Positions 7,357-22,360 are shown, counted from the first letter of the stretch. The stretch is 64,000 nucleotides of DNA from Acidimicrobiales bacterium (GCA_013003535.1 JABDIY010000137.1:21591-85590), one strand, 5' to 3'. Notes: generated by a model from the letters alone, not told the origin. Translations and numbers: made by a program.

Positions 7357-9285
7357 ATGGGCCTTCTCACTGCGGCCGGTGGACTCCTCGGTCTTCTCTT
7401 TCTCGGCGCCGGCGTTATGCGCCTATGGCAAAACTCCCTCAAAGACCCGGGCGATTTCATCCAACGTGTGGGCGACTCGCTCGCTCTGGCCGTTCCCGCC
7501 GTCCTGCTCCTCAGCCTCGTAGCAATCAGGCTGGAGGTCCTCAACCGTCCGCTGGTTCTCCTTGGCTTGGCTCCAATCGTCGGGCTTGGAATGATTTCCA
7601 CAATTCAAGCAGTTCCACGGCTCCCCCAACGTCTCCCCGCCATGGCGGGAATAGGCCTGGCTGCCGTCGCCCTATTCCAGAGGCGGAACCCCGTCTACTT
7701 CTTGGGCGAGTGGAGCGACTTCGGTGAGTATGTGAATCGCGGCAACGCCATAGCCGATGGTGGCTCGCCCGGTGGATATTTTCCTCCGCTGACCGAGACA
7801 TTGATGGCGTTCGGACATCTCGTTTTCGGCGAGGCCCAAGCGATCCAGATCATCCCGGTGATCGCAGTCTTGACGGGCTTGTTCCTCGCCGCCTGCACGT
7901 TCATACTCACACGATCCATGGCCGGAGCGGCGTTCACAGGAGCCGTATTTGCGGTGCACCCGGCGGCCGTTTGGTTTGGTCGCCTCCCTACAAGCGAGGC
8001 CCTGTACGGGTTTCTCGCCACAGTGTTCCTCTACCAGTGCCTGCGATCGCGCCAGGGTGCTCCGAGCCTCCCGCTGTTTGTAACCATGATGGCAATGATC
8101 ACAACCCGCCCGAACGGCCTGGTCGCAATCGCTCCATTCGCGGCAGCGGTACTGCTGGGATCGCTGGTGGGTGACGGCGTTCGCTGGCGACGCCTTATCA
8201 CTCCAGTCGCCGGCGGTTGGCTGGCGGGGTATCTGTGGCTGGCCAACTTCGGTTTCCTGCGGGGGGTGTTCGTCTCGGTCGGCAGCCTGGTGGGTGCAGG
8301 AACAGACGATTTGGCTGAAACTCTGTCATCGCCCGGCGCCCAGGTCGGCGTCGTTATCGCCGCCACCGTCGGCGCTTTGTTGCTTCGGCAACTCTCGCTG
8401 GTCGTAGAACGATCGGCTCCGGCATCCTTGCGGCAGTATCCGTCGTCAATTCTCCTCGCCGCCGTTTGCGCCATTGGTCTGGCCATCCTCGCTTCGGGCC
8501 AACTTCCGATTCTTCGAGATGGGTTGCGTAGTTTCGGCATAGTGATCCTGATTCTGGCTGGAGCTGGTGCGCTCATCATGATCCTCGGTCCGGTTGCAAC
8601 CGATCGAGGTGGCGTTGCCTTGATCACCGCCCAGACGGCAATGTGGAGTTTCGTCTATTCGATGCAGTTCGACGAGGCCGTTCCCCATTACATCTACCTC
8701 TACTGGGAGCGGTATCTCTATCCCACCGTGATGCTCCTCAGCTTCGTGTTTGCGGGAGCGGTGCTCCCGTTTGCCCAGTCGCTGTTTACCTCGGCCAGAA
8801 CAAGCGTTGGAGTGCTGAGCAAGGGCATCGCGGTTGTGGTCACGATCGCGATACTGCTCGTACTGGTGCCAGGTGACACCTTGCAACACCACGAGCAGTA
8901 CCACGGGAAGGACTTCTACGAAGATCTTGCGGCGGTGGCCGAGTCATTGCCCGAAAATGCCATCGTTACCTACGACGGCGTAGCGGCCGAGGAGATCTGG
9001 GAGCGGTACTTCTTCTTCTATCCCAACACGTACCGGGTCATCGGCAGCCCACTGGTAAACACCTTCGGTGTACAGTTCAACAATCTTCCTGTAGATGCCC
9101 GCGCCCCCGATCCCGCCGCCAACCTCGAAGGCGCAACTCACAGACTGACCGTGCGGATCGAACCGTCAGATGCCGCGCTGAATGAGACCACTCGTTTCAC
9201 CCCGATCTCGGTGCTTCCTCGTGACTCCACCACCAGTGATGACTGGGCCACTTGGACCCTGGCAATCACCGTTGATGCTCTCTAA
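7357..9285 (+). CDS. Polytopic membrane protein, probable GT-C fold glycosyltransferase
   Basis: Many TM segments; acidic loop motif SDFGEY, FPPL, later ERY motif; in glycosylation operon. Confidence 0.6.
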   Translation: MGLLTAAGGLLGLLFLGAGVMRLWQNSLKDPGDFIQRVGDSLALAVPAVLLLSLVAIRLEVLNRPLVLLGLAPIVGLGMISTIQAVPRLPQRLPAMAGIGLAAVALFQRRNPVYFLGEWSDFGEYVNRGNAIADGGSPGGYFPPLTETLMAFGHLVFGEAQAIQIIPVIAVLTGLFLAACTFILTRSMAGAAFTGAVFAVHPAAVWFGRLPTSEALYGFLATVFLYQCLRSRQGAPSLPLFVTMMAMITTRPNGLVAIAPFAAAVLLGSLVGDGVRWRRLITPVAGGWLAGYLWLANFGFLRGVFVSVGSLVGAGTDDLAETLSSPGAQVGVVIAATVGALLLRQLSLVVERSAPASLRQYPSSILLAAVCAIGLAILASGQLPILRDGLRSFGIVILILAGAGALIMILGPVATDRGGVALITAQTAMWSFVYSMQFDEAVPHYIYLYWERYLYPTVMLLSFVFAGAVLPFAQSLFTSARTSVGVLSKGIAVVVTIAILLVLVPGDTLQHHEQYHGKDFYEDLAAVAESLPENAIVTYDGVAAEEIWERYFFFYPNTYRVIGSPLVNTFGVQFNNLPVDARAPDPAANLEGATHRLTVRIEPSDAALNETTRFTPISVLPRDSTTSDDWATWTLAITVDAL

Positions 9286-9291
9286 CCCAAC

Positions 9292-9786
9292 CTAAGCCGG
9301 GAGCCAAGCCACCCACTGCGGGTGGGCCTTGGTCTTGAGGACCGCGGAAAAAGCGGGAGCCCGAGGGGGCCGCTTCAAAGTGAGGCCGGCACCGGCGAGG
9401 GATCGCGAACCCTTGCGCTGATTATGCAACTTGCACATCAGCACGGTGTTCTCCCACGTGGTGTCGCCACCTCGACAGCGGGGCACGATGTGATCCACGG
9501 TGGACCCGTTGGCGTGACATCCTGCCACCTGACAGGTGTTCTCATCCCGAGCTCGCAGGGCTGATCGTGTCCAGGGAGCCTTTCCACCCCGACGGAAGGC
9601 CTTCACCATGTTGAAGAGTCGTACGACCACCGGAAACGGGAATTCGGCCCCGCCGCAGGTTCGGATCGTCCGATCCTCGGACTGCTCGAGCAATTCGCAT
9701 TCGCCCTCGAGCACCAGGACGATCGCCCGCCGCCAACTGATAACGGTCAGCGGCTCGTAGCTTGCGTTTAACAGAAGTACCGACAT
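9292..9786 (-). CDS. HNH endonuclease
   Basis: VLLLNASYEPL N-terminus; CQVAGC...TVDHIVPRCRGG..WEN...C..HNQRKG; SD GGAGGGAGG. Confidence 0.88.
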   Translation of the reverse strand: MSVLLLNASYEPLTVISWRRAIVLVLEGECELLEQSEDRTIRTCGGAEFPFPVVVRLFNMVKAFRRGGKAPWTRSALRARDENTCQVAGCHANGSTVDHIVPRCRGGDTTWENTVLMCKLHNQRKGSRSLAGAGLTLKRPPRAPAFSAVLKTKAHPQWVAWLPA

Positions 9787-9878: not shown

Positions 9879-10658
9879 TCACGTTGGTTGTAGACCTTCG
9901 ATTTCGATGTGTGCCTGTTCATAGAGCCAGACGTCGAACCGGTTGAACTCTGAGATTACCTCGCGGGTACGGGGCTTCAGATCGTCGAGACTGGGTCGAG
10001 ACGGGGTGATGTGGGCCCGTGGTCCTCTGCCGCTTGGCACAACCCAGCCGAACCGAGTGGCGAGCTGGGCGTAGAAGTCTTCGATTCGAGCGAGGTCACC
10101 AACAACTTCAATGCCTGTGGTGAGGTTGAGCAAAGCTCGTTCCGCGTCGGCGGCCGTACAACTCCCGATCGGGGTTTGGGTGTTGGTGCCGCAGAGCTGC
10201 CGAACCATTTGGTTGTCGAAATTGTGGCTGGAGCCACTGGCCACAGCACCCTCCAATCCCATCGAGATGAGATCCCGTTCGACTTCGGACAGCGACTCTG
10301 GCGGAACCGCCGAGAGGTAGTAGTACGCACTGATCACACGGTCGATCGGGTCGCGGAGCAAGGTGAAGTAGCGGGCTCGCTCCAGCCCCAAACTCTCATG
10401 AACCCCGTAGGGCAGGTGGCCGTGCACAATCGTGGTCAGACCTCGCCCAGACCGATTCTGTACTGTTGCCACCAGCTGGTCCGGGACGGCACTTGGCGCG
10501 GCGTCACAACGCAGGTTTCCCGCCTTCTCAACCTGGCGGTCCAGCGTTTGGAGAACGCTCACTCCCCCGGTCTTGGGTATGTGAATGAACACAAAAGTGC
10601 TCCCCATCTCGGCTGGAGTTGACTGGCCCGGCCTCGAACGGAATCTCGGCAGTCTCAA
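9879..10658 (-). CDS. Sulfotransferase (Sulfotransfer_2-like)
   Basis: FIHIPKTGGVS, LRDPIDRVISAYYY; TTG start overlaps wzt stop. Confidence 0.82.
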   Translation of the reverse strand: MRLPRFRSRPGQSTPAEMGSTFVFIHIPKTGGVSVLQTLDRQVEKAGNLRCDAAPSAVPDQLVATVQNRSGRGLTTIVHGHLPYGVHESLGLERARYFTLLRDPIDRVISAYYYLSAVPPESLSEVERDLISMGLEGAVASGSSHNFDNQMVRQLCGTNTQTPIGSCTAADAERALLNLTTGIEVVGDLARIEDFYAQLATRFGWVVPSGRGPRAHITPSRPSLDDLKPRTREVISEFNRFDVWLYEQAHIEIEGLQPT

Positions 10659-11890
10659 ACCTCCGAGACCTCCGCGTTCCGGTTTGTCTGGCTGTGCTCC
10701 AGGCTGGTCTTCAGGCGAATTCGGCCCGCGGCCGTTCCCCCGCTCACCACCGAGAATCGCTCTGGCGATTGGTTGCGATGATATTCGACGGTTTCATCGG
10801 TGTCCTGCAACGCCACGGTCACTTCGAATGACCCTTGGAGAAGTGGCAGATCCTGGACCCGTAGGACGATCTCTCCTACACCGGGTTGGAGCTGACGAAG
10901 ATCATCGCCAGCGATGTCCGCGCTGGAAACATTGGCGATGGCCAAACCATCATGGCTGAAGAGCCAGACCCGCAGGCGAACCGAGTCCAGCGGTGATCGA
11001 CAAACGTAGCGAATTCTGGTGACCAGCTCATCCCCGGGGCGAAAGCTCTCGGATCCCGACGCCGGAGGATCGAATGCGACGCTGGTTATTTCAACCGGTC
11101 GACGATCGGCCGCTGGCAGCTCGGTCGCCACGCCATCACCATGGCGAATTCCGGTGCGGGCTTCCAGCGCGTCTCGATACACGACAACGCCGTCGCCGGG
11201 ATCGCCTTCATAGATCATCTTGCCGCTGTTGAGGACCACTGCCTTGTTGCAGAACAACCGCACCATGTCGGGCGAGTGAGTAACGATGATGATGGTCCGC
11301 CCGTCACGTTGAAAGCCCCGGATTCTTTCGAGACATTTGCGCTGGAAGGCTTCATCTCCCACTGCCAAGACCTCATCGATGAGGAGAACGTCTGGCTTCA
11401 GATTCACTGCCACGGCGAAACCTAGCCGGGCGAACATCCCTGAGCTGTAATGTTTGACCTGAGTGTCGATGAACGCCGGGATCTCAGAGAAGTCGATGAT
11501 GTCAGCGATCATTTCGTCGATCTGAAGCCTCGAGAAGCCTAAAATCGAGCCGTTCATATAGACGTTTTCCCGGCCGGTAAGGTCGGGGTGGAATCCGGCG
11601 CCCAACTCGAGCAATGCGCTCATCGACCCTCGAACGCGGACGGCTCCCGTATTGGGCCGGATGGTGCCGGAGATTATCTTGAGGAGCGTGCTCTTGCCGC
11701 TGCCGTTGTGACCCAGGATTCCGACCGTCTCCCCGGCCTGCACGTCGAATGCGACATCGTCCAACGCATGGAATGTCTCGGAATTCCCCCGACCGATAGA
11801 GAGCATCCGCTCCATCAACGAGTTCCCAACGCCGGTCTGGCGCTTGAAGGTTTTGGAGACGTGGTCTACCTCCACTGCCGTGTAGCTCAT
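10655..11890 (-). CDS. wzt: Polysaccharide ABC exporter ATPase with C-terminal carbohydrate-binding (Wzt_C) extension
   Basis: GHNGSGKST, YSSGMFARLGFA, LIDEVLAVGD, plus ~150-aa beta-rich C-terminal domain. Confidence 0.9.
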   Translation of the reverse strand: MSYTAVEVDHVSKTFKRQTGVGNSLMERMLSIGRGNSETFHALDDVAFDVQAGETVGILGHNGSGKSTLLKIISGTIRPNTGAVRVRGSMSALLELGAGFHPDLTGRENVYMNGSILGFSRLQIDEMIADIIDFSEIPAFIDTQVKHYSSGMFARLGFAVAVNLKPDVLLIDEVLAVGDEAFQRKCLERIRGFQRDGRTIIIVTHSPDMVRLFCNKAVVLNSGKMIYEGDPGDGVVVYRDALEARTGIRHGDGVATELPAADRRPVEITSVAFDPPASGSESFRPGDELVTRIRYVCRSPLDSVRLRVWLFSHDGLAIANVSSADIAGDDLRQLQPGVGEIVLRVQDLPLLQGSFEVTVALQDTDETVEYHRNQSPERFSVVSGGTAAGRIRLKTSLEHSQTNRNAEVSEV

Positions 11891-12813
11891 CAGAGCGCCT
11901 CACCAAAGTCGCCTTCGAGACGAGCGAATACCTTGATCCCGACGAGGCAGAGGACCAGGGAAGTGAGCAGAGAGATAGCCAGCATTGTGATCAGGAACCC
12001 TTGACCTCTCATCAGAAGTTCGAAATGCGCTTCTTGATCGGCGGGAGAAAGGTTGGATGGGTTGTAGAGAACCCTATGGAAAGTGACCATGGGTGCGATC
12101 ATCGGGTTGAGCACGGTCAGCCACTCGGCTCGCTCCCCGCCCCAGTCGCGCAGGGCGCCTGCCACGAAGTCGTACTGGTAGACGATCGGTGTGAACCAGA
12201 AGAGCGAAAGCAGTGCCAACTCCAGAAAGTGGCCCGTGTCTCGGTAGTACACGTTGTAGGCGCTGAGAATGAAGCCCAGGCCCGTTGCGAGCAAGATCGT
12301 GGCCAGCAGCGCAGGAATGAGCATCCACAGCATGCTCCATGCCGGCACTTGACGGAAGACGGCCAGGCCGATCACCAGGACCACGATTTGAAAGAAGAAA
12401 CTGATGATCGATGCACCAACGGCGGCGATCGGCAGAATTTCCCGAGGGAACCACACCTTCTGAACCAGCGCTCCGTTGCCGATGATCGAAGACGTGGCAC
12501 TTCCCAATCCCACCGAGAAAAGGTTCCAGACGAGAAGACCAGACAGAAAGAGCAGCCCATAACGCGGCGGTCCTCCCTTGAGAACGAAACCGAACACGAA
12601 GCTGAAGACCAGCAGGTAGAGCAACGGATTCAAAAGGGTCCAGATGAAGCCGAGGAAACTCTCCTTGTAGCGGACTTTGAGTTCCCGGCGAACCAGGTTC
12701 CCCAGTAGTTCTCGGTACTCCCAAACATCTCGGAGGCGCTGGGGCAGCGACCGTGGCACGCTCCCGTGCTCGATGAGAGGGGGAATTCCATCCGCCGATA
12801 CTGCTGCAGTCAC
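11890..12813 (-). CDS. wzm: Polysaccharide ABC exporter permease
   Basis: RELKVRYKESFLGFIWTLLNPL, KVWFPREI, YYRD, TPIVY, LNPM. Confidence 0.9.
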   Translation of the reverse strand: MTAAVSADGIPPLIEHGSVPRSLPQRLRDVWEYRELLGNLVRRELKVRYKESFLGFIWTLLNPLLYLLVFSFVFGFVLKGGPPRYGLLFLSGLLVWNLFSVGLGSATSSIIGNGALVQKVWFPREILPIAAVGASIISFFFQIVVLVIGLAVFRQVPAWSMLWMLIPALLATILLATGLGFILSAYNVYYRDTGHFLELALLSLFWFTPIVYQYDFVAGALRDWGGERAEWLTVLNPMIAPMVTFHRVLYNPSNLSPADQEAHFELLMRGQGFLITMLAISLLTSLVLCLVGIKVFARLEGDFGEAL

Positions 12814-12864
12814 TCCACGATCGTAGTGCCGGAGCCGGCCCGCATCGGGTACCCCGACTCTCGA

Positions 12865-14277
12865 TCAGCTTGCGGTTCGGGGGGTGCGGGTAGCGAAGAA
12901 GATCGTTCGTGACCCGCCGGTGAGGGTCTCGCGGCGACGCACCTCGAACCGTTCGCCGAGGAGACGTTCAAAGTTGTCCAGGGTGTAATGGCTATAGATG
13001 CCCGGGCGTTTGTTGCGGAGCAGTTTCTGTACCATCTGGTCATTCTCGTCAGGGAACTCGATCACCAGATTTTCCGTAGAGTCGGCGAGAAGATCGAGTT
13101 GTTGCTGCAGCGGGATGTTGAAGGTCAAAGCCAAATGGTGAATGACCGCCAGATAAATCACGGCGTCGGGGCGGCTGCGGTGAAACAGCCCGGGACGCTC
13201 TGAACCCCGCCAGCCAACGCCGCCCCCGGCGGTGGAGAGATCCACGACCAATGGAGTGATCCGGTTTGCTTCTACCGAAGTCTCGGTCCGGAGCTGCTTG
13301 TAAAGCTGGTCGATCACAAGTTCGTCGGCATCCATGGCCAGGACCACATCGGCATGGTTGGCGGCGATTCGGCTGAACATCCCGTCATTACAGCCAACAT
13401 CCCATACGTGGCCCAGTGCTCCAGCACCGGCGAGACTGTCGTCGACAAACGCCGCCTTCTCGGCCAGGCTCCTGGATTCGTAGTGGCCACGATCGCTGTA
13501 GTCGGACCAGAGCGATTCGTCCAGACCAGTGTCCATGCTTTCCACGAGTTTGCGCGTCTTGGCCACCGTGGCCAGAAGGAGTTCCGTCTTCATTCCGGAC
13601 TCCGCCACGTCTTCAGCGACCCCCTCGTCAGAATCGGCAAGTTTGGCCTGCGCCAACGCGTGAAACAAGACGTGGGTGAAGCGGCCCCGCTGGCGTTTGA
13701 GACGTAGCGGCCCCAGGAGACCCTTCGCCTGATCGACGGGAATCCCGTGTACGGAGCCTCGCAGGAACGGTTGAAACGAAACTCCGGCGTAGGCCTTCAA
13801 CATCAGCGGGTACAAAAAAAGTTCGCAGAACTGCTGGTAACCGAACCAGGGATCAGACCGCTTACGCGGTTGAAATGATCCAACGTCGATGAAGATCGGT
13901 GTAGTTCCCACGAACTGGATGTTGTAGGACGAGGCGTCCTTTACACCAACTCCAGCCAGGGCGCCGGCCCGAACCAAATCCAACTGGAGAAGCGCGGCGT
14001 CTTTGAGCATCTGGAACGACCATTCGAACGGAAACGTGATCAGATCCAGTTTCGGGTGGCGCAGGATCGAGGTGGCGGGGGCAACATGATCTTCGACCGC
14101 CATGAGTTCTGATTCGATGACAGTGCCCAGCTGGATCTGGGATTCAACGAAGGGCCAGACGGCGACTCGATCGGACTCACCCATCTCCGAAAACAGTCGA
14201 TACACACTGTCATCAGCCACGACGACTCGGCTGAGAGGGTCTCGAAACGACCCGGAGTCCGCTTCGAGGAGAGCCAC
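12865..14277 (-). CDS. NoeA-like protein: N-terminal kinase-like domain plus C-terminal SAM methyltransferase
   Basis: SFRDP; KDASSYN (DxxxxN catalytic loop) and FIDVGS (DFG-like); WDVGCNDG, AMDAD, LAVIHHL. Confidence 0.75.
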   Translation of the reverse strand: MALLEADSGSFRDPLSRVVVADDSVYRLFSEMGESDRVAVWPFVESQIQLGTVIESELMAVEDHVAPATSILRHPKLDLITFPFEWSFQMLKDAALLQLDLVRAGALAGVGVKDASSYNIQFVGTTPIFIDVGSFQPRKRSDPWFGYQQFCELFLYPLMLKAYAGVSFQPFLRGSVHGIPVDQAKGLLGPLRLKRQRGRFTHVLFHALAQAKLADSDEGVAEDVAESGMKTELLLATVAKTRKLVESMDTGLDESLWSDYSDRGHYESRSLAEKAAFVDDSLAGAGALGHVWDVGCNDGMFSRIAANHADVVLAMDADELVIDQLYKQLRTETSVEANRITPLVVDLSTAGGGVGWRGSERPGLFHRSRPDAVIYLAVIHHLALTFNIPLQQQLDLLADSTENLVIEFPDENDQMVQKLLRNKRPGIYSHYTLDNFERLLGERFEVRRRETLTGGSRTIFFATRTPRTAS

Positions 14278-14280
14278 GGC

Positions 14281-14472
14281 TCAGGAGGCAGTTTCGGAAG
14301 CGAGTGGTTCGCCGACGTTCTCGACGACTTCGCCTTCGGGCTTTGCGCCCTTCCCAAGGCGAGCCTTCAAACGCCGCATCCCCATTTTCCCGGCGACGGA
14401 GAGCCCTGCGGCACCACCTGCCACTGCGGAAGCGATCATGCTGCCGGTTGCAGCGTCTAGGTAAGAGAACAT
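14281..14472 (-). CDS. Small single-TM protein with YLDxxTGS motif
   Basis: MFSYLDAATGSMIASAVAGG, then hydrophobic helix and basic stretch; -10 TAACGT 7 nt before ATG; ends 3 nt before next start. Confidence 0.75.
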   Translation of the reverse strand: MFSYLDAATGSMIASAVAGGAAGLSVAGKMGMRRLKARLGKGAKPEGEVVENVGEPLASETAS

Positions 14473-14473
14473 T

Positions 14474-14488
14474 CCCTAAACGTTAGGG
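14474..14488 (-). promoter_or_regulatory. -10 element TAACGT inside palindrome CCCTAA-ACG-TTAGGG
   Basis: Perfect 6-bp inverted repeat covering the -10 and start region of the small peptide gene. Confidence 0.45.
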
Positions 14489-14552
14489 CACTGGCGCAGG
14501 CAACCCGTGGCACTATGCAGGATCAACGATTGTTCGATCCGGCTCAGTTGGC

Positions 14553-16286
14553 TCATCGCGGGAGTGCATCGAAGAGAGGTTCGGCCGATTGCCCGGGCGG
14601 TACAAAAGAGTGGAACCGGTCCACGGCTGCTTGAAACTGCTGGGGATCGACGGACAGGATCTGTGTCCGGCCCGGCGGCGGTTCGCCGTTGAGTCGATGA
14701 CCCGCCATCCGTTCCGCAGGTAATTCACCGATTCCCATCACGTCCATGATGGTGGGAAACACGTCGGTGATCTCGGCCAACCGGTCGTCCTCAACCCCGA
14801 CCGATTGACCGGGGTATTTCACGAACAGGGGGACCGCCGCCAATTCTGCGGTGGTTTCCGGCAGCAGGGTTCGGGCGGGGAGACCTTCTTGGAGCGCACC
14901 ACCATGGTCCGCGACAACCACGATCAGCATCTCATCCATGCGCCCGGTGGCCTCGACGCTATCGAGGAACTCCCCCAGCAACATGTCGGTGAGTTCGAGC
15001 TGCATTGCATACATCAACACGCCGCGCCGATGATCGGGCCCAACCGGCCAGGTGTTGTCGTCAAGCCACGGGATCCACTCGGCCTCATTGCCTGACCCGT
15101 CGGGCCGAAAATACCAGGGCGAATGCGGTAACAGCACGTGTTCGTAGTAGAAGGCCGGTTCGTCGAGGGTTCCGATCTGGCCGGTCAGGGATCGGAACTG
15201 ACCTTGTAAATCTTGCTCCAGATCGTCCCACGGGAACTCCCAATCGTCCTCGGCGGTGACGTCGCGGGGTCGGGTGACCCGGGGTTGCCGGAACCGAGTC
15301 CACTGGTTGTTTATGTTGGGCACCCACCGCTGTGCGACTCCGGGAGGCAGAACCTGGTTCTGAACGACGATCAGACTGTCGTCCAGCAACAAAGACCAAC
15401 CAAGATCGGGAAACTCGCATACGTCGCTAGGGCACAATCGTGTAACGCTCTCCCATGCCTCGACCCGATGCGTTGTAGCGAGTTCGGTGAACAGATTGCT
15501 GGGATAACTGGACACGGTGGGTGCGGGATCGTCGGTCCTCAGCTCACCGGAGAGAAGCGCCGGCACCGCCACCGATGTCTGCGTGGAGACCGTTGTTGCA
15601 TTCCGGTACCACGTGCTCATTTCAGCCAACCGGGCGAAGTTCGGGAGCCGCGCCCGGTCGATCTGACCCTCCTCATCCAACATTGTGGCGAGTGGCAGTT
15701 CGTCGAAAACGATCAGCGCGACCGAGGTGTCGTTCAGGGCATCCGGAAGACTTCCCGATTCCGATGAGCTGCTGCCGTTCCCACCGAGAAGCCCCGATAC
15801 GGGGCTGAGGCCGAGGAATAACACCGGGAAGATGAACGAAATCCAACCGAGATTGATCATCAGCCGTTGAACCAGGTCCATCCGCAACGCGACCCAGGCC
15901 AGGATCGAGAGCAAGATGACGAGCGGTAACGCCACTTCGATTTGAAGATCGAGGGGCCGCCACGCGTACCCCGCCAAGGCCACGGCGGTGAGCAACGCCA
16001 TTCCAACCGGAAGCAACGGGCGGGCTAAGCTCGGTGCCAGACGCTCGACTGCGAAAGCGATCGACCAGACCGCCGCCGCCGGGCCAAGGAAGATCAGCAG
16101 TGTGAGACCAATGATGTCCGCAGTGCCGCTGCGGTGAGCTACGAAGAACGTGGGATTCTCCCCGATCAACCCGAAAAAGGGCTGGCTGAGTCCGATCCCG
16201 AAGATCCCGAGCAGGATGAGGAATAGTCGCCAATCCGCCGAGAGACCCCGGTGTACTACAGCGCGGTCTCCAGTCTCAGCCTGCAC
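14553..16286 (-). CDS. Membrane-anchored alkaline-phosphatase-superfamily (LtaS/EptA-like) transferase
   Basis: About 5 N-terminal TMs; IVFDELP, STQTSVAVPALLSG (Thr, no CxPxR), HVLLPHSPW, VVADHG. Confidence 0.75.
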   Translation of the reverse strand: MQAETGDRAVVHRGLSADWRLFLILLGIFGIGLSQPFFGLIGENPTFFVAHRSGTADIIGLTLLIFLGPAAAVWSIAFAVERLAPSLARPLLPVGMALLTAVALAGYAWRPLDLQIEVALPLVILLSILAWVALRMDLVQRLMINLGWISFIFPVLFLGLSPVSGLLGGNGSSSSESGSLPDALNDTSVALIVFDELPLATMLDEEGQIDRARLPNFARLAEMSTWYRNATTVSTQTSVAVPALLSGELRTDDPAPTVSSYPSNLFTELATTHRVEAWESVTRLCPSDVCEFPDLGWSLLLDDSLIVVQNQVLPPGVAQRWVPNINNQWTRFRQPRVTRPRDVTAEDDWEFPWDDLEQDLQGQFRSLTGQIGTLDEPAFYYEHVLLPHSPWYFRPDGSGNEAEWIPWLDDNTWPVGPDHRRGVLMYAMQLELTDMLLGEFLDSVEATGRMDEMLIVVVADHGGALQEGLPARTLLPETTAELAAVPLFVKYPGQSVGVEDDRLAEITDVFPTIMDVMGIGELPAERMAGHRLNGEPPPGRTQILSVDPQQFQAAVDRFHSFVPPGQSAEPLFDALPR

Positions 16287-16417: not shown

Positions 16418-18349
16418 CTAACCTCGAGTTTGGGCCTGATTGAAGTAGCGGTCCGTGGAAGCCAGTTCCACCGCCAAACCAATGTCGTCGACGGCGATCA
16501 GGCGAGCAGACCAGTACTCGATGGAGGCCTCACTCGGTGCGAAACCGAGAATGCGGGTGTACATGAGGATGGTGCGGTCCCGGCGGGATTCGGCAGAGTA
16601 GTAAAAGTTGGCAGCAACGGCGGTTCTACTGGCCTGCCGGGAATCGAGAAGGCCAACCCAATACGCCAGACCTCCTGCATCAGCCGGGCGGCCGAGGATG
16701 TCGGTGTAGAGCTGGCTCACAAATCCGCTGTTGGTTCCACCGGCCGTAAGGAAGTACTCCTCAGAAGCAAAGAAGTAGGACCCGATGGCGTCGATCTCCG
16801 CTCCGTCGCGAAGTGTCTTGCGCCAGTAGGCTTCGCCTGCGGCGTCGGCTGGACGACCGAACGCCGTTTGATACAGCTGGGCCAGCATCACGCCGGCGAA
16901 TTGATCACTTTGAGCCAACTCGGTGGCGAGGCCTGATCGACTTTGATCCGAGTAAACCCTGCTGGCCCACTCCTGTCGCGTTCCGGCATCGGGCTTTGCC
17001 CCGAGGAATGTCTCGGCGAGAGAGTCGACATAGTTGGAGATCTGTTCGGTCTCACCGCGCACGATCGGGCCGAGCGTAAACCAGTCGGATTTCAGGCCCA
17101 ACGTGGTGCGAGCGACCCAGCCGGTCTGCGTTACGGTTCCCTGCTCGAATCGGAACTCGATGAGAGACACGCGGCCGCCGTCGGCTCCAAGGCCGTTCCG
17201 CGCCGTGACGACAAGTTCGAGGAGCTTCCCCTTACCGAACTTGCGTTCCAACGAAGAGACGTCGACCACCTTGGTCCACTGCCGATTGGGGTTGGCGGTG
17301 GTGGCGTCGCCGTCATCCTGGACCGACGGAAAGGTTCCCCCGGCGGTGAATCCGCCGGTACTGGAGGAGAACTCGGTACGGGCCACCCGCCCGGCGGAGT
17401 TCAGACGAACCAGTCCAGCCGTTGCGGCGATGGCGGCATCAGTACGAGGATCAGTGGTGGCGTAAATACTGCCGCCTGCGGCTTGGTGGAATCGTCCCTT
17501 GAACACTTGGCATCGGGTGGTCTCACAGGTATCGGCGAAAGGCAGATGGCGAGTATCACCGGCCATGGCATAACTTCGAGCGGCCACGGCCTGCGCCTCG
17601 AGTGCCGGAGCCGGCCAGCTGGCCGGAGACTCGTTTGGAACAACGCCGCGCAGGTATTCCTCGATCGTGGTCACGTTGACCGTTCGGCGGGTTCCGGCGT
17701 GTTCGGCGGCAACGATCTCACCTGAATACCAGGTTCGGGCGCTGCCACTTCGGCACACGTGCAGCATCGACTCATGCGAGTCAGTTGCGGCAGGACTATC
17801 GGGAACCAAACGCACGTAGTCGTGTTGGGCGATCCCGCCGACCAGGGTCCAGGGGCCGGCACACGATGTGGCATAAGAAACCAGAAACTGCGAACCGTCA
17901 TGGCTGAGCCGCACCGCTCCGTTGGAAATGTAACCCAAGTCTTCATTACCGGGGCCCCGCAAGAGGATGTTTCCCGACTCCAAGCCAACGGTGGTGCTCT
18001 GGCCGGCGTTGTAACTGAGGTCCGCCCGAACCCGATTTGGGGCGACCATGTTGTCCGTCGGAACAGCACCAGCCACGGTTCCACCATAGAAGTGGTCGAG
18101 AATCTGGGCGCTGGACCAACCCTCATTGGCGTAGCCATATGCCCCGTATTGGCCGAGACCCCGACCGTGACCCCAGCCCCGACCGGTGATGGTGATCGTG
18201 GCCGTTTCGTCGGCGGCGCCGACAGGCGGCGACCACGCAAACGGAAGTAGGAGTATTGCAGCAGCGGCGGCGATGAGCCGGAGGCGGAGTGAACGCATGT
18301 GTAGGCCATCGGACCTACGGCGCGCCAGTGAAGGGGTTCCCCACAACAT
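16418..18349 (-). CDS. SpoIID/LytB-family lytic transglycosylase with C-terminal DUF4214-like repeats
   Basis: GWGHGRGLGQYGA, EEYLRGVVPNE, AQAVAARSYA, CETTRCQV; LGRPADAGGLAYW repeats; signal peptide; true start probably the later MRSLR Met. Confidence 0.85.
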   Translation of the reverse strand: MLWGTPSLARRRSDGLHMRSLRLRLIAAAAAILLLPFAWSPPVGAADETATITITGRGWGHGRGLGQYGAYGYANEGWSSAQILDHFYGGTVAGAVPTDNMVAPNRVRADLSYNAGQSTTVGLESGNILLRGPGNEDLGYISNGAVRLSHDGSQFLVSYATSCAGPWTLVGGIAQHDYVRLVPDSPAATDSHESMLHVCRSGSARTWYSGEIVAAEHAGTRRTVNVTTIEEYLRGVVPNESPASWPAPALEAQAVAARSYAMAGDTRHLPFADTCETTRCQVFKGRFHQAAGGSIYATTDPRTDAAIAATAGLVRLNSAGRVARTEFSSSTGGFTAGGTFPSVQDDGDATTANPNRQWTKVVDVSSLERKFGKGKLLELVVTARNGLGADGGRVSLIEFRFEQGTVTQTGWVARTTLGLKSDWFTLGPIVRGETEQISNYVDSLAETFLGAKPDAGTRQEWASRVYSDQSRSGLATELAQSDQFAGVMLAQLYQTAFGRPADAAGEAYWRKTLRDGAEIDAIGSYFFASEEYFLTAGGTNSGFVSQLYTDILGRPADAGGLAYWVGLLDSRQASRTAVAANFYYSAESRRDRTILMYTRILGFAPSEASIEYWSARLIAVDDIGLAVELASTDRYFNQAQTRG

Positions 18350-18423: not shown

Positions 18424-19395
18424 TTACTCGATGAGTGTGGCCAGGGCTTCGGCGGTCTGGAGCGAGAACCGGCGTGCGGCTGCTTCCCCCAGGTGGGTGA
18501 AGTCCACGAAGTCGTTGTTGGTGAAGTCCTCGGCCACCGAAACCACGGGCACGTCCAGTTCGGCACCAAGGGCGGTCACGGTGGCATGAACCAATTCATG
18601 TTCGGCCGGGCCGGATCGATAAAGGTCGGTGAAACGAGGTGGGACCGGGAGTTCGACGAGAACAACCGCTATCCCGGCAGCAAGCAATTGGTCGACGGTT
18701 CGGGCAATCGCCGCAAGATCGTCTCGGTCCAGAACGAAAGGCGTGATCCGACCCCGCATCTCCGCTTGGCGTGATGGTGCAACGACGCGTCGAAAATCGA
18801 TGCGTTCGCCTCGGTCACCCATATTGGTCTCAGCCTCCCCTCGGTCCGTCAATCGCTGGTTCGCGATCACACCTGCTAGGGCGGATGGCTCTCGAAGAAT
18901 GGTGCGGTTCCTGACCAACGCCGAAAACGATGCTGCGGTGCGCTCCACCGACGCCGAGGCCCCGTCCTTGGTGTTGAGTGCCGATCGATACGCGGACTCG
19001 GTGGCCTGGCCGTACGCGGCCGAGATATCCAAGGCCGAGAGCCCCCACACCACGGTGGACACGTTCAGACGGTCCATCACTTGATCCAACAACCATGGTT
19101 CCACCACCACCGGGACGCCACCGTTGATGCCGGCGTTGTAGACAGATACCAGGTTGAGCTGGGCCGAAAGGACCGATGGAACGAGATCCTGCTGGGCCAT
19201 GGACGTTCCCACCACGACCAGACTCGGATCTGATCCCAGCGCATCCATCTGATCGATCTTGAGTTCGACAGCGTAGTCATGCCAGCGAAGGGCCTCAGAA
19301 CCCGGAGCTACCGCCACGCGGGCGATGCCCTCGGCGACGCCAGCAACTATCAGCGCGGCGACGAGGAACCGCAGCACCGCCACTCGACTCATCAC
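18424..19395 (-). CDS. SGNH/DltD-like extracytoplasmic acyltransferase
   Basis: N-terminal TM; VVVGTSMA, YNAGINGG, DFTHL (DxxH). Confidence 0.65.
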   Translation of the reverse strand: MMSRVAVLRFLVAALIVAGVAEGIARVAVAPGSEALRWHDYAVELKIDQMDALGSDPSLVVVGTSMAQQDLVPSVLSAQLNLVSVYNAGINGGVPVVVEPWLLDQVMDRLNVSTVVWGLSALDISAAYGQATESAYRSALNTKDGASASVERTAASFSALVRNRTILREPSALAGVIANQRLTDRGEAETNMGDRGERIDFRRVVAPSRQAEMRGRITPFVLDRDDLAAIARTVDQLLAAGIAVVLVELPVPPRFTDLYRSGPAEHELVHATVTALGAELDVPVVSVAEDFTNNDFVDFTHLGEAAARRFSLQTAEALATLIE

Positions 19396-20957
19396 GGGCC
19401 GATCCCCCGCTCCTTGAACCGCTTGGTCAGGAGTTGTGTAAACCGGCTGGCGCCCGCCTGGTTGAGGTGGGTCAGGTCGGCCCAGAGTCCGTCATCGTCC
19501 AAATCACCGCTGAGGTCCACGAACGTTGCGCCGGTTGGTGCGATCACCTCACGTTCGAGCTGATCGAACGACGCAGCAATGGTTTCCCTGCCACCGGGGA
19601 TGAGCTCCACCGCCTCGGGGCTCACCGTCATTCCAACGATCACCACCTCAGCGCCCCACGCCTGGAGCTGCGCTACGACCTCGGCTGTGACCGCCGCCCG
19701 ATCGCCACAGAAGGTGGGATCGGCGAACTGATTGGTGTAATCGGGGATCTGCGCGGCGATCGCATCTGGGTTCCGGGAGTTTCCCTTCGGCGCATTGCCC
19801 ATGTTGGCATTGGGGAACCCGGTGTCCCGGCCGAGCAAGATGTCGAGGTTGTCTACGCCGGCGAACCAGCCAGAGGCGGCAAATGTCATCTGGCGGTTGG
19901 CCAAGCGGTCCGAGAACTGTTCGGCTCGCCCCGGTGTAATGCAGGTTCCGAGAAGATCGACCGGCCCCATGAGCCACACGATCGTGGTGGGTGAGGCATA
20001 GCGATACACCTCGGGTACCCAAAGCTGTTGTACCTCTGCCAATGACCCCGGCAAGAAAGCATTGCCCACCGACACCCCCAAACCGCTGGACAGGTCCGAT
20101 ACCTCGATCGCGGCACCGGCTTGGGAGCTTCCAAGTACCACAAGGTCCACCGGGGCCAGCGGATTGCGCAACCACCGATATGCCGGCAAGGCCGAGTAGA
20201 AATGGAAGAGACGCGTCATGATCGATCCGCTCAACAAGCGGTCGACTTCCGCTACCGATGCCGATGCGGTAGATGTCAATGCCAGAAGGTCACCCAACGA
20301 CGGATCGTCGACGGCTATCGGGAGAGCATCGGGGGCCAAACAGCCAGGCTGGAACAAGGTTCTCTCAAACAACGATCGTCCCAAGGCGCGCGCAGGAGAC
20401 GAGCCGATGAAGTCTTCGGGTGGGGAGTCGGCGAGTTTGGTTTCCAGCCCACTGGTCACAACAAGAAGTCGAGATAACGCATCTCGCCAGGTCTCGACGT
20501 CCACTCCACACGCCCTATCGAGCTCATCCAAGAGTTGAGTCAATTCCACGAATGAGGGGCGAACGGATTCAGGGGCGGCGTTGGCCAGTGGTTCATAAAC
20601 GAAGGCCGGAAGAACGCCCTCCATGGCGATCACCTGATCCGCGTTAATCGGATCGCCCGGCTGTAACCAGTTCGTTTCTACCGCCTCGGGCAGGGCTTCG
20701 TCCGGACAGGTAACGGCTTCGGACTCGAAGCCGTATTCGTCTATGGTCACGGTCCGCTCGCAACCCGAGTCGAAAACGACAACGCTCTCCGTCGGCGCGC
20801 CAACTGTAGCTATCACCCGATCAGCCACGTCATAACCGCCCTCTACTCCCGAGCCACATGCGGAGACGAGCAAGACCAGAACAAGGCTGATGGAGACGCG
20901 ACTCTGTGATCGCCGAACTCGGTCGAAGGCAGGAGGCGGGGGCGGCGGAGGCGACAT
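19392..20957 (-). CDS. SGNH/DltD-like putative lipoprotein
   Basis: ATG 20957 overlaps MBOAT stop; lipobox-like LVSAC; VVLGSSQA, DLTHLNQAGA. Confidence 0.65.
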   Translation of the reverse strand: MSPPPPPPPAFDRVRRSQSRVSISLVLVLLVSACGSGVEGGYDVADRVIATVGAPTESVVVFDSGCERTVTIDEYGFESEAVTCPDEALPEAVETNWLQPGDPINADQVIAMEGVLPAFVYEPLANAAPESVRPSFVELTQLLDELDRACGVDVETWRDALSRLLVVTSGLETKLADSPPEDFIGSSPARALGRSLFERTLFQPGCLAPDALPIAVDDPSLGDLLALTSTASASVAEVDRLLSGSIMTRLFHFYSALPAYRWLRNPLAPVDLVVLGSSQAGAAIEVSDLSSGLGVSVGNAFLPGSLAEVQQLWVPEVYRYASPTTIVWLMGPVDLLGTCITPGRAEQFSDRLANRQMTFAASGWFAGVDNLDILLGRDTGFPNANMGNAPKGNSRNPDAIAAQIPDYTNQFADPTFCGDRAAVTAEVVAQLQAWGAEVVIVGMTVSPEAVELIPGGRETIAASFDQLEREVIAPTGATFVDLSGDLDDDGLWADLTHLNQAGASRFTQLLTKRFKERGIGP

Positions 20958-22360
20958 CAGAACTGGAAATACACGAAAGGGCGGGGCGAACCGCCGGAAA
21001 ACAGTACAACGCCCACGACCGCAGCGGAGACCAGCGCCCCCGCAATTTCTGGGCGGCGGCGGACGGCGGCGATGGTGATCCAGTCCAAACGGGCGGCCAC
21101 GTCGATACACACCATCGTGGCGAAGGCTGCAGCCACCAACATGAGGTCCGCTCCGCTGGATACTCCGCTCTGGAAAGCCATGGCCCGGAAGACCTTCACG
21201 GACGCACCAAGGTCCTCGGCGCGGAAGAAGACCCATACGGCGCATACGAGCATGAACGTGATGGTGACTGCCGGGATATCGGTGAATCGGAGCGGACGAT
21301 CAGGAACCGAACCATTCCGCACGAGCCGATGAATGACCAGCAACAGACCGTGCAGAGCACCCCAAATCACGAAGTTGAACGATGCTCCATGCCATAGACC
21401 GCCGAGCAGCATCGTGAGCATCAGATTGGTGTACGTGCGGACGGTCCCTCGACGGTTCCCGCCCAGGGAGATGTAGAGGTAGTCGCGCAGCCAGTTGGAC
21501 AAGGAGATGTGCCATCGCCGCCAGAACTCAGTGATGTTTCTGCTCAGATATGGCTGGGCGAAGTTGAGTGATAGCTCGATGCCCATGAGTCGCGAGACGC
21601 CACGCGCCATGTCTGTGTAGCCCGAGAAGTCCCCGTAGATCTGAATTGCGAACGCCGCGATTCCCGTCCCCATCGCAACCCACGACATCTCACCGGGGGC
21701 TGCGAAGGAGCGGTCCACGACGTCAGCGACGCCATCAGCCAGCACCACTTTCTTGAACAGGCCAAGAAGAATCAGTGTGAGGCCCGAGGTGATTTGATCT
21801 GTTGAGACACGACGGTTCAGCTCCTGGAGCTGGGGTAGGAGCACGTTGGCCCGCTCGATCGGGCCAGCGACGAGTTGGGGGAAATAGGCGACGTAGGTTG
21901 CAAAGGTCACCACGTTTCGGACGGGCCGTAACCGGCGTCGGTAGACGTCGATCGTGTACGACAATGTCTGGAACGTGTAGAAACTGATCCCTACCGGCAA
22001 CACCACCTGGAGAAACGGCCGGTTCGGTTCCGCCCCGGTTCTACCAATCAGGTCAACGAAAGAATCGACGAAGAAGTTCAGATACTTGAAGATGCCCAGG
22101 ATCCCAAGATTGACGACCAGCGAGGCGATCAGCAGCAGCTTGCGTGCATGCGCCCCGTCGGCTACTTCCAGACGACGGCCGATCGTGTAGTCGACCACCG
22201 TGCTGATGGCGAGAAGGCTGAGAAACCGCCAGTCCCACATCCCATAGAAGAAATAGGACGCCACCAGGACGATCGGATTTCTCAGCCGGGGTGGTGCGCC
22301 CCAGTAGAGCGCCAAGACAACCGGGAGGAAAATCGCAAATGCAATCGAGTTGAACAGCAC
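20957..22360 (-). CDS. MBOAT O-acyltransferase (AlgI/PatA/DltB family)
   Basis: LPVGISFYTFQ, FPQLVAGPIER, QIYGDFSGY, FWRRWHISLS, GLWHGA; C-terminal PFVYFQF. Confidence 0.93.
   Translation of the reverse strand: MLFNSIAFAIFLPVVLALYWGAPPRLRNPIVLVASYFFYGMWDWRFLSLLAISTVVDYTIGRRLEVADGAHARKLLLIASLVVNLGILGIFKYLNFFVDSFVDLIGRTGAEPNRPFLQVVLPVGISFYTFQTLSYTIDVYRRRLRPVRNVVTFATYVAYFPQLVAGPIERANVLLPQLQELNRRVSTDQITSGLTLILLGLFKKVVLADGVADVVDRSFAAPGEMSWVAMGTGIAAFAIQIYGDFSGYTDMARGVSRLMGIELSLNFAQPYLSRNITEFWRRWHISLSNWLRDYLYISLGGNRRGTVRTYTNLMLTMLLGGLWHGASFNFVIWGALHGLLLVIHRLVRNGSVPDRPLRFTDIPAVTITFMLVCAVWVFFRAEDLGASVKVFRAMAFQSGVSSGADLMLVAAAFATMVCIDVAARLDWITIAAVRRRPEIAGALVSAAVVGVVLFSGGSPRPFVYFQF

Follow-up and report, generated by a model that had tools for sequence, protein, structure and literature searches.

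The window analyzed here, a stretch of 64,000 nucleotides from an Acidimicrobiales bacterium (GCA_013003535.1 JABDIY010000137.1:21591-85590), contains a surface-glycan cluster in which three co-oriented genes (12865-16286, minus strand) lie directly upstream of wzm/wzt. The gene order of this cassette is permuted in the window: it opens with a NoeB-like membrane enzyme (14553-16286, minus; 577 aa; Pfam Sulfatase, 5.4e-19), followed by a single-pass membrane micro-peptide (14281-14472, minus; 63 aa) without Pfam or NCBIfam family, and by a NoeA-family protein (12865-14277, minus; 470 aa) that combines a kinase-like half with a SAM methyltransferase and is homologous to NoeA over its full length. 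Joined to the cassette are wzm, encoding the ABC-2 permease of a glycan exporter (11890-12813, minus; ABC2_membrane, 1.5e-16), wzt, encoding an ABC ATPase with a C-terminal carbohydrate-binding domain (10655-11890, minus; ABC_tran, 2e-21; Wzt_C, 5.1e-8), and a sulfotransferase-like gene that ends the run (9879-10658, minus; weak Sulfotransfer_2, 3.5e-4). The intergenic gaps measure 80 nt between the NoeB-like and micro-peptide genes, 3 nt between those for the micro-peptide and the NoeA-like protein, and 51 nt between the latter and wzm. The wzm and wzt genes overlap by 1 nt, and the wzt stop overlaps the start of the sulfotransferase-like gene by 4 nt.

This arrangement confirms the three co-oriented genes upstream of wzm/wzt that had been proposed in a sequence-only reading of the window, and all motifs quoted there are present: FDE (194-196), DHG (460-462), and Thr237 in the membrane enzyme, MFSYLDAATGS in the micro-peptide, and KDASSYN (113-119) and FIDVGS (129-134) in the NoeA-like protein. 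The micro-peptide gene had also been credited with its own -10 element, but a sigma-70 scan found no site upstream of it, and a 6-bp hairpin at 14488-14474 is the sole element seen in front of this gene.

The three proteins of the cassette

The NoeB-like enzyme is predicted to consist of an N-terminal bundle of membrane helices and an outward-facing domain of the alkaline-phosphatase superfamily with a Thr nucleophile. In its AF2 model (pLDDT 85.7), helices at residues 19-167 are followed by an alpha/beta domain. The metal ligands (FDE, H, DHG) and the Thr nucleophile position first read from the sequence are supported by conservation among 26 homologs, where D195, H383, H388, and D460 are invariant and E196, T237, and H461 are each conserved in at least 90%. 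T237 lies 10 residues ahead of G247, the distance that is canonical for the Cys of sulfatases. The label "LtaS-fold", on the other hand, finds no support: in both sequence and fold searches, the closest solved relatives of the catalytic domain are phosphonate monoester hydrolases and sulfatases rather than LtaS. In the PDB profile ranking, phosphonate monoester hydrolases (5e-21) come ahead of LtaP (5e-13) and LtaS (5e-11 and weaker). PbgA matches the enzyme full-length (614-624 aligned columns), and among the NCBIfam equivalogs neither LtaS (25 bits vs. a cut-off of 970) nor YejM (21.7 vs. 825) is reached. At 577 aa, the window's enzyme is short compared with the roughly 700-850 aa of most homologs.

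The NoeA-like protein carries the kinase-like half at about residues 1-250 and the class I SAM methyltransferase at about 253-467. A tblastn search against plasmids with this protein gave 65 records, 64 of them spanning at least 80% of the query and one annotated as noeA. The proposed resemblance to rhizobial NoeA and NoeB thus stands for NoeA, with 29.7% identity over 97% of the protein in the S. meliloti pSymA match (E 3e-51) and a family profile that reaches Ensifer noeA at 1.6e-97. For NoeB, it holds only at the level of superfamily and gene context, and the window's enzyme appears to belong to a different subfamily: identity to rhizobial NoeB is 25% over 175 aa (pairwise E 5e-8), the family profile reaches Ensifer noeB at only 3.2e-8, and tblastn of the NoeB-like gene against plasmids gave no match spanning more than 27% of the query.

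The assignment of the N-terminal half of NoeA-type proteins as a kinase comes from the available text of a survey of the Legionella kinome published in 2022 (PMC9758233), where the R/D/N/D residues of the family are equated with K72, D166, N171, and D184 of PKA, the Lys position being an Arg. The corresponding R27, D114, N119, and D131 are invariant in 29 NoeA-like sequences, as is the SAM motif D293/G295/G299, and the kinase-like residues are spaced as D-x4-N, with 12 residues to the next Asp. Comparisons of the N-terminal half with Pkinase and APH profiles from the window's own genome were not significant (E 0.19 and 0.4); the best local alignment with Pkinase pairs D114, N119, and D131 with the HRD-Asp, the Asn, and the DFG-Asp. 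The C-terminal half scored alike, and the positive control of APH against Pkinase gave 95.9%. No Pfam kinase family was found at E<=5 in any of the 29 members. In the AF2 model (pLDDT 82.9), the secondary-structure elements follow one another in an order that fits a kinase-like fold. The earlier description of kinase-like motifs fused to a SAM methyltransferase agrees with the motifs present and with the matched methyltransferase domain.

The matches listed by whole-model fold searches (Foldseek, VIA) all fall in the methyltransferase domain (253-467). Methyltransf_12 is found in 28 of the 29 members at E<=5 (best 9.7e-6), and is sub-threshold in the window's protein (21.1 bits vs. a cut-off of 30). 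The domain aligns with NodS (Z 17.4, rmsd 2.8, 171 residues) and with WbdD (Z 15.3, 185 residues). The methyltransferase fold does not discriminate: NodS, the methylphosphate capping enzyme, WbdD, and phosphoethanolamine methyltransferases differ in score by no more than about 2 Z units. An ESM Atlas feature search was uninformative (best score 0.77).

The 63-aa single-pass peptide starting with MFSYLDAATGS proved to belong to a family with 24 close homologs and 503 cluster representatives (E<=1e-3). It displays an N-terminal YLDxxTGS motif, a Gly/Ala-rich helix, a basic juxtamembrane stretch, and a variable acidic tail; the mean net charge is +3.9 over the 14 residues past the helix and -3.9 over the remaining tail. 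Tyr4 and Asp6 are invariant across 32 diverse sequences. In members with a long N-terminal extension, the motif often comes right after AxA (AFA in 10, AHA in 6, AYA in 4), a signal-peptidase-type site present in Gram-negative forms; the window's peptide has no signal peptide. Because the motif follows this site and the basic stretch lies beyond the helix, the prediction places the motif on the outer face, across the membrane from the cytoplasmic kinase-like protein. That the kinase phosphorylates Tyr/Thr/Ser of the peptide, as previously suggested, is accordingly unlikely, the kinase-methyltransferase having no membrane segment. A complex prediction from the family alignments of peptide and NoeB-like enzyme (score 0.00) is informative neither way.

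The peptide matched no family, DltX included, in Pfam (E<=0.01), nor any in NCBIfam, and a literature search for the string YLDPGTGS found no paper. A chance ORF was rejected in view of the 24 close homologs, the 503 representatives, and the invariant Tyr4/Asp6. A RiPP-like precursor was rejected as well: what is conserved is not a leader but a membrane helix that has a signal-peptide form, and linked maturation enzymes are absent.

Inheritance and known relatives of the cassette

The three genes represent one copy of a widespread cassette of micro-peptide, NoeA-like, and NoeB-like genes that is co-inherited as a unit. In 72 of 80 peptide-centered loci, drawn from many phyla, a NoeA-like gene follows directly downstream on the same strand, usually translationally coupled to the peptide gene, and a sulfatase-family gene is adjacent in 55. 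The neighborhood linkage of the peptide that the sequence-only reading anticipated is thereby confirmed, together with its motif, YLDxxTGS being present in 154 of 171 family members. Around NoeA-like genes in a phylum sample, the peptide is adjacent in 40/40 loci and a membrane gene of the alkaline-phosphatase fold in 36/40. Within the window's order, the same 17 of 121 genomes contain both the peptide and the NoeA-like gene; the NoeB-like gene (E<=1e-40) is present in 16 of these 17 and absent from the 104 others. Each of the 17 genomes holds a single peptide and a single NoeA-like gene alongside up to 11 NoeB-like matches. This ratio of one kinase-methyltransferase and one peptide to many membrane enzymes constrains any model of the cassette. 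Sixteen stand-alone NoeB-like paralogs are scattered without conserved neighbors, and the stand-alone peptide genes of three genomes have no informative ones. Most of the 14 cassette loci surveyed are flanked by unrelated housekeeping genes, and the same three-gene set is also found on a deltaproteobacterial plasmid.

The cassette had been considered undescribed; however, the available text of the Legionella survey (PMC9758233) already reports the kinase-methyltransferase family with two conserved neighbors. Its Lani_1193-1194-1195 locus resembles the window in the R/D/N/D kinase residues, the C-terminal methyltransferase, and the presence of a small ORF and an alkaline-phosphatase-fold neighbor. 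In literature from 2022 on, a search joining NoeA, kinase, and methyltransferase gave this survey as the only relevant match. The Sinorhizobium/Ensifer operon comprises nodL, a 71-aa ORF, noeA, and noeB. Its 71-codon ORF, in which the motif reads AxA-YLDPGTGS, directly precedes noeA, just as the micro-peptide gene precedes the NoeA-like gene in the window; the NoeA homology is full-length, and a membrane sulfatase-fold gene is adjacent in both. The window differs in placing the NoeB-like gene first, in the subfamily of this enzyme, in a peptide without signal peptide, and in being joined to wzm/wzt instead of nod genes. According to the available text of a bioRxiv preprint, noeA and noeB are rhizobial host-range genes with roles unassigned since 1995, and a nodL mutation polar on both alters Nod factors only by loss of the O-acetyl group. 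The cassette spans many phyla and includes rhizobial noeA/noeB.

Association with Wzm/Wzt glycan export

The exporter genes of the window encode a permease scoring 62 bits, below the cut-off, for the NCBIfam galactan export permease, and an ATPase whose Wzt_C domain exceeds the Pfam cut-off (33.4 vs. 30.4 bits). This Wzt has its best solved relatives in TarH and in 8dku/7k2t, whose 404-aa chains bear the deposited name "ABC transporter" and are presumably the Wzt of Aquifex aeolicus. The sulfotransferase-like product falls just under the Sulfotransfer_2 cut-off, its best solved relative being heparan sulfate 2-O-sulfotransferase (E 5e-5).

Outside the window, wzm/wzt are found within 8 kb of a NoeA-like gene at 4 of the order's 16 other loci and at 3 of the 40 loci in the phylum sample. 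In a tree of 123 NoeA sequences, the eight wzm/wzt-linked rows, window included, need five changes, of which well-supported branches force at least three. NoeA-like genes have thus joined wzm/wzt at least three separate times, in eight loci, an association that is new here. Seven of the eight NoeA-linked Wzt proteins carry Wzt_C, and in three genomes the NoeA-like gene lies beside wzm/wzt with the peptide and NoeB-like genes elsewhere. By analogy, this recurrent linkage to Wzt_C fits a WbdD-like capping role in the wzm/wzt-linked lineages. Capping of ABC-exported glycans cannot be the general function of the cassette, because it is mostly found away from export genes, with no wzm match in any of the 80 peptide-centered loci. 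The repeated recruitment of NoeA-like genes beside cap-reading glycan exporters is, nonetheless, a lead on the substrate of the cassette.

Possible mechanisms and comparison with known systems

The most likely mechanism in the window's lineage, put forward here tentatively, would be a WbdD-like capping combined with an external NoeB-like step. The cytoplasmic NoeA-like protein would phosphorylate the terminal hydroxyl of a lipid-linked polymer and then methylate the phosphate, as WbdD does. The C-terminal domain of Wzt would read this cap, and Wzm/Wzt would export the polymer. At the outer face, the NoeB-like Thr enzyme, whose nearest relatives hydrolyze phosphodiesters and phosphonate monoesters, may hydrolyze a phosphodiester of the exported substrate or move a phosphoryl-linked group to an acceptor. 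It would probably act in concert with the peptide, which is predicted to display its conserved N-terminal motif on the same side of the membrane. For the peptide, the role of a membrane subunit or adaptor tying the cytoplasmic and external enzymes is more likely than that of a diffusible product.

Two further observations speak against capping: WbdD needs no external partner, yet the three families are strictly co-inherited here, and the sulfotransferase-like gene of the same operon could supply a cap in place of the NoeA-like protein. The kinase comparisons without significant match, the undiscriminating methyltransferase fold, and the preprint's account of the nodL mutant weigh on the same side.

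A possible but doubtful alternative is that the peptide-held NoeA-like protein phosphorylates and methylates a lipid head group which, after flipping, NoeB-like paralogs transfer to various envelope acceptors, much as EptA, EptB, and CptA all use one phospholipid donor; this corresponds to a lipid version of the relay put forward in the sequence-only reading. Such a common donor would agree with the excess of NoeB-like matches (up to 11) over the single NoeA-like and peptide genes, with the absence of the NoeB-like subfamily from the 104 genomes without NoeA-like gene, with the self-contained cassette amid unrelated genes, and with the 16 scattered paralogs. Against it, lipid enzymes show no consistent linkage, the catalytic domain of the NoeB-like enzyme resembles soluble hydrolases more closely than it does EptA or LtaS, and three genomes place the NoeA-like gene at wzm/wzt, away from its partners; we know of no report of a phosphorylated and methylated donor lipid of this kind. 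The membrane helices with a Thr-nucleophile alkaline-phosphatase-fold domain, the weak profile matches to LtaS, LtaP, and PbgA, and the location in an envelope glycan cluster would also suit an ordinary EptA/LtaS-like decoration, in which a normal phospholipid would supply the phosphoethanolamine or glycerol-phosphate that the NoeB-like enzyme attaches to an envelope glycan. The NoeA-like protein would then have a separate or regulatory task, such as handling the lipid by-product, and the position beside wzm/wzt would reflect shared regulation rather than shared chemistry. This is unlikely, since it leaves unexplained the strict co-inheritance with kinase-methyltransferase and peptide and the repeated linkage of the NoeA-like gene alone to CBM-bearing Wzt, and the NCBIfam scores are far under every equivalog cut-off.

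Quite improbable is a more speculative scheme in which the cassette carries phosphoryl-transfer potential across the membrane. A methyl phosphodiester would be made in the cytoplasm from ATP and SAM, on a lipid or the end of a glycan. The Thr enzymes outside the cell, where ATP is absent, would swap its methanol for an envelope acceptor in an energy-neutral transesterification, with Tyr/Thr/Ser of the peptide as a possible covalent way-station or active-site component. Up to a dozen acceptor-specific transferases would then be served by one donor-making pair. A DltX-like covalent shuttle, where a phospho- or methylphospho-group is loaded on these residues and passed to the glycan, seems more improbable still. 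Tyr4/Asp6 and the near-invariant Thr9/Ser11 positions do lie at the membrane surface, and DltX and the protein acceptors of PptA and EptC offer precedents, but the motif is predicted outside the cell, beyond reach of a cytoplasmic kinase, none of the hydroxyl residues in the cytoplasmic tail is conserved, and the peptide lacks a match to any Pfam family, that of DltX among them.

If the WbdD-like reading is true, the cassette would be a second, independently built chain-capping system with an external enzyme acting on the cap, and the question of NoeA/NoeB would become testable in cultivable carriers.

Among known systems, DltX and BcsF are small single-pass partners of envelope enzymes that resemble the peptide in size, helix, and gene position. 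The peptide differs from them in its N-terminal motif, predicted to be external, and in its partner genes, and no sequence relation was found. EptA/MCR, LtaS, OpgB, BcsG, and PbgA share with the NoeB-like enzyme an N-terminal helical membrane domain followed by an external catalytic domain, the position of the Thr nucleophile, and the Asp/Glu and Asp-His metal ligands. The NoeB-like enzyme departs from this group in that phosphonate monoester hydrolases and type I sulfatases rank first among its relatives.

In E. coli O9a, WbdD caps the glycan with methylphosphate, and the C-terminal domain of Wzt binds this cap. The analogy with this enzyme, already drawn from the sequence, holds in part: there is no significant sequence relation, beyond the WbdD methyltransferase domain being the best, weak PDB sequence match of the NoeA-like profile (E 0.047), and the domain order is reversed, WbdD being composed of methyltransferase, kinase, and coiled coil. 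The NoeA-like protein has no coiled-coil tail, its model ending with the methyltransferase at 467, and an Arg is read at the kinase Lys position in the available text of PMC9758233. In addition, WbdD requires neither a micro-peptide nor an external phosphatase-fold enzyme. Some support for the analogy comes from the repeated linkage to a Wzt with a cap-binding domain. In both systems, one protein encoded beside wzm/wzt unites a kinase-like domain with a class I methyltransferase, and Wzt carries a C-terminal binding domain.

The six-gene row and its surroundings

The three genes singled out by the sequence-only reading, and every motif quoted in it, are present in the sequence, where they head a minus-strand row of six. 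The row begins with the NoeB-like membrane protein of 577 aa (14553-16286; Pfam Sulfatase, 5.4e-19), followed by a 63-aa peptide ORF without a matching family in Pfam or NCBIfam (14281-14472), and the NoeA-like protein of 470 aa (12865-14277), whose Pfam matches are to methyltransferases and all below threshold. Next come wzm (11890-12813; ABC2_membrane), wzt (10655-11890; ABC_tran and the Wzt C-terminal carbohydrate-binding domain, Wzt_C, at 33.4 bits with a cut-off of 30.4), and a gene for a 259-aa sulfotransferase-like protein (9879-10658), which among solved structures comes closest to heparan sulfate 2-O-sulfotransferase (E 5e-5). Since the genes are separated by gaps of 80, 3, and 51 nt and then overlap by 1 and 4 nt, the latter between wzt and the sulfotransferase-like gene, the row is likely a single operon. 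A 6-bp hairpin, CCCTAACGTTTAGGG (14474-14488, minus), ends immediately ahead of the ATG of the peptide gene, and its 3' arm covers AGGGA, a possible ribosome-binding site of that gene. This hairpin might restrict translation of the peptide.

The window as a whole is an envelope-glycan cluster, with rml-type sugar-nucleotide genes, GT2 and GT4 glycosyltransferases, an initiating Bac_transf enzyme, methyltransferases, an MBOAT protein, and two SGNH-like proteins. Judged from how its best database matches are named, the host is an Acidimicrobiia-like actinobacterium. After the MBOAT gene (20957-22360, minus; Pfam 2.1e-31) come two genes that match GDSL/SGNH weakly (19392-21245 and 18424-19395), and together the three look like a membrane O-acylation set for polysaccharide or peptidoglycan. 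The 617-aa ORF of this set shares 289 nt with the MBOAT ORF, so translation of the former probably begins at a later start codon. The Ensifer cassette likewise adjoins an acetyl/acyl transferase gene (nodL), and an O-antigen acetylase adjoins the Legionella cassette according to a 2022 Legionella kinome survey (PMC9758233). Two large, secreted-looking proteins with DUF4214 (16418-18349 and 22454-25144, minus), one with a SpoIID and the other with an Amidase_2 domain, lie on either side of the acylation genes and hint that this region also serves cell-wall remodelling. Just beyond the operon end lies an HNH endonuclease gene (164 aa; 9292-9786, minus; Pfam 5.3e-7), which sits between the operon and a 642-aa polytopic membrane protein without a Pfam family (7357-9285, plus). 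Further away, adjacent genes for Ku and a LigD primase-polymerase domain (37428-39276, plus) form a non-homologous end-joining pair.

Properties of the three proteins

The 470-aa protein is homologous to rhizobial NoeA along its whole length; the Sinorhizobium meliloti match (E 3e-51) spans 97% of it at 29.7% identity. Of 65 records returned by a tblastn search against plasmids, 64 cover 80% or more of the query, and one is annotated as noeA. All 29 NoeA-like sequences compared share R27, D114, N119, D131, and the SAM-binding motif. In the AF2 model, which is confident (pLDDT 82.9, pTM 0.86), residues 16-137 follow a strand and helix order compatible with a kinase-like N-lobe, a catalytic loop, and a metal-binding Asp. 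Structure searches with the whole model returned matches to the methyltransferase domain only, and sequence tests for a kinase relationship were not significant, so the predicted kinase fold of the N-terminal half rests on PMC9758233 and the motif pattern. That survey describes the Lani_1194/NoeA family as combining an atypical kinase with a class I methyltransferase in one protein, in which Arg replaces PKA K72 and the equivalents of D166, N171, and D184 are present. The Z scores of the methyltransferase domain with NodS (17.4), the methylphosphate capping enzyme (16.6), phosphoethanolamine methyltransferases (15.5 and 15.3), and WbdD (15.3) are too close together for the substrate to be named from this fold.

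The 26 NoeB-like sequences compared all share D195, H383, H388, and D460, and nearly all of them share E196, T237, and H461. T237 sits 10 residues ahead of G247, the spacing found for the catalytic Cys in sulfatases, so the replacement of the sulfatase CxPxR by Thr, as first read, holds. The model (pLDDT 85.7) places membrane helices at 19-167, followed by the catalytic domain. Both the sequence profile and the fold place it closest, among solved proteins, to phosphonate monoester hydrolases (5e-21; Foldseek 1e-12) and to sulfatases; PbgA aligns along its full length, LtaP and LtaS rank lower, and in NCBIfam the protein falls outside the LtaS, EptA, and YejM equivalogs. The earlier label of an LtaS fold is not supported, and the resemblance to rhizobial NoeB stands at the superfamily level, no closer relation having been found.

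Its homologs show the peptide to be a genuine, widespread micro-protein. The 24 close homologs differ little over the first 38 residues and have a variable, acidic tail. Among 1.8 billion representatives, a profile search retrieved 503 proteins at E<=1e-3, and nearly all of the best 150 of these have 49-126 aa. One match of 239 aa is possibly a fusion, and a repeat-bearing one of 1095 aa looks spurious. Tyr4 and Asp6 are invariant across 32 diverse sequences, and the motif [YFW][LIVM]Dxx[STAG]G[STNA], on whose conservation the sequence-only reading depended, is kept in 154 of 171 members. Its first residue falls at one of positions 1-6 in 75 members, 7-15 in 21, 16-40 in 47, and beyond these in 11. 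When the start lies beyond position 15, AxA often precedes the motif (AFA 10, AHA 6, AYA 4), and 27 of these 58 members carry a hydrophobic, signal-peptide-like extension. The mean net charge is +3.9 over the 14 residues after the helix and -3.9 over the remaining tail which, under the positive-inside rule for membrane-protein topology, would place the mature N-terminal motif outside and the tail in the cytoplasm. A full-text literature search for the motif found no paper.

Co-inheritance and exporter linkage

The identity of the cassette, its co-inheritance, and the coupling of its genes are established. Scanning one genome per species for the peptide motif gave at least 599 pattern matches, with 217 relatives among the matches listed, and the best 80 loci were kept. 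The linkage of the peptide to NoeA-like and sulfatase-fold genes, foreseen by the first reading, is borne out in these best 80 of 217: a NoeA-like gene directly follows on the same strand in 72 and lies on the opposite strand in 2, a sulfatase-fold gene follows directly without a NoeA-like gene in 5, and neither is found in 1. An adjacent sulfatase-family gene is present in 55 (38 of the window's subfamily at E<1e-40, 17 weak matches only) and absent from 20, of which 8 end less than 1 kb downstream. The arrangement of the window, with the membrane enzyme first, recurs in only 2 of the same 80. A sample of 400 other genomes from the phylum supplied 40 NoeA-centred loci; all 40 have the peptide, and 36 a sulfatase-family gene, as a neighbour. 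NoeA-like genes occur in 67 of 401 genomes, a count that takes in the window's own genome and one flagged as unpublished.

Among 121 sampled genomes of the order, the NoeA-like gene and the peptide are found in one identical set of 17, and the NoeB-like subfamily (E<=1e-40) is found in 16 of these and in none of the other 104. None of the trio is present in either of the two genomes sampled from the window's own family, so the cassette is patchy and accessory. Each of the 17 genomes gives a single peptide match, a single NoeA-like match, and up to 11 NoeB-like matches. In three of the sampled genomes (G059, G067, and G100) the NoeB-like subfamily has expanded to 7-11 matches, some as tandem pairs, the copies being scattered amid unrelated genes while the peptide and NoeA-like gene remain single-copy. 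Beyond the trio, gene content is not conserved: in 14 diverse loci the neighbours are mostly unrelated housekeeping genes, with glycan genes in only three. At a Vicinamibacterales locus (L053), a protein with CotH kinase and FGE-sulfatase domains (12734-14968, plus) is encoded 1.4 kb beyond the cassette's sulfatase-family gene.

What is new in the window is the joining of the cassette to wzm/wzt. No wzm match was found in any of the best 80 peptide-centred loci of the 217 relatives. The exporter genes lie within 8 kb in 4 of 16 other NoeA-like loci of the order, and the peptide, NoeA-like, sulfatase-fold, wzm, and wzt genes form one run in 3 of the 40 phylum loci, all from one family. Three genomes of the order have the NoeA-like gene beside wzm/wzt and the peptide alone on a different contig. 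A FastTree phylogeny built on 123 NoeA-like sequences requires 5 state changes to account for the 8 wzm-linked rows, and at least 3 changes are forced by well-supported branches; NoeA-like genes have been linked repeatedly to cap-reading exporters. Wzt_C is present on 7 of the 8 linked Wzt proteins and absent from one. In the same tree, three public MAG contigs titled Bifidobacterium (L011, L013, and L066) have NoeA-like sequences nested within the Ilumatobacteraceae/Acidimicrobiaceae group, and their organism labels look wrong.

Proposed role and known relatives

In E. coli O9a and O8, Wzt_C recognises the cap at the polymer end; the O9a cap, a methylphosphate, is made by the kinase-methyltransferase WbdD. 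With this precedent, the repeated linkage is consistent with NoeA-like proteins acting as WbdD-like capping enzymes in the wzm/wzt-linked lineages; such capping cannot be the general role of the cassette. In the window's lineage, the NoeA-like protein would add a phosphate and then a methyl group to the lipid-linked polymer end in the cytoplasm, the mark would be read by Wzt and the polymer exported, and the NoeB-like enzyme and the peptide would act at the outer face on a phosphodiester of the exported substrate. This three-step scheme is proposed tentatively, as the likeliest of the readings weighed but possible rather than probable. The observation behind the first interpretation is confirmed, and the interpretation itself is upheld in part. 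Several points count against it. The cassette usually stands alone; the sulfotransferase-like protein of the operon, which may sulfate the polymer once exported, could be the source of the cap; and a nodL mutant polar on noeA/noeB reportedly alters its Nod factors by O-acetyl loss only. A natural noeA truncation is reported to accompany nodulation failure on 17 of 27 Medicago genotypes.

One-to-many copy numbers are better accounted for by the main rival, in which the NoeA-like protein and the peptide make a special lipid donor that NoeB-like paralogs pass to different acceptors. Faced with the wzm/wzt linkage of the NoeA-like gene alone, it does worse than capping, and we regard it as rather unlikely. 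An ordinary EptA/LtaS-like decoration, with an unrelated role for the NoeA-like protein, seems unlikelier still. A covalent shuttle on the peptide is very improbable, as the predicted topology puts the motif on the opposite side of the membrane from the kinase and none of the hydroxyl residues in the cytoplasmic tail is conserved.

The cassette had been put forward as a candidate undescribed relay, but it is already in print. In PMC9758233, Lani_1193, possibly the peptide, occurs in 65% and Lani_1195, a NoeB-like protein of alkaline-phosphatase fold, in 38% of 816 neighbourhoods of the Lani_1194/NoeA family; the survey assigns no function to the family, and its main text does not state the nature of Lani_1193. 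The Ensifer canadensis annotation runs from nodL through a hypothetical protein of 71 aa to noeA and then noeB (annotated as a sulfatase-like hydrolase/transferase). In the 71-aa protein, AHA-YLDPGTGSM precedes a Gly/Ala-rich helix; the window's peptide has this motif in the form MFS-YLDAATGSM. On a deltaproteobacterial plasmid, sulfatase-fold and NoeA-like genes are accompanied by an ORF of 76 codons, unannotated, that contains AHA-YLDPGTGSM. The trio of the window is a copy of this known cassette, here with a permuted order and fused to an exporter.
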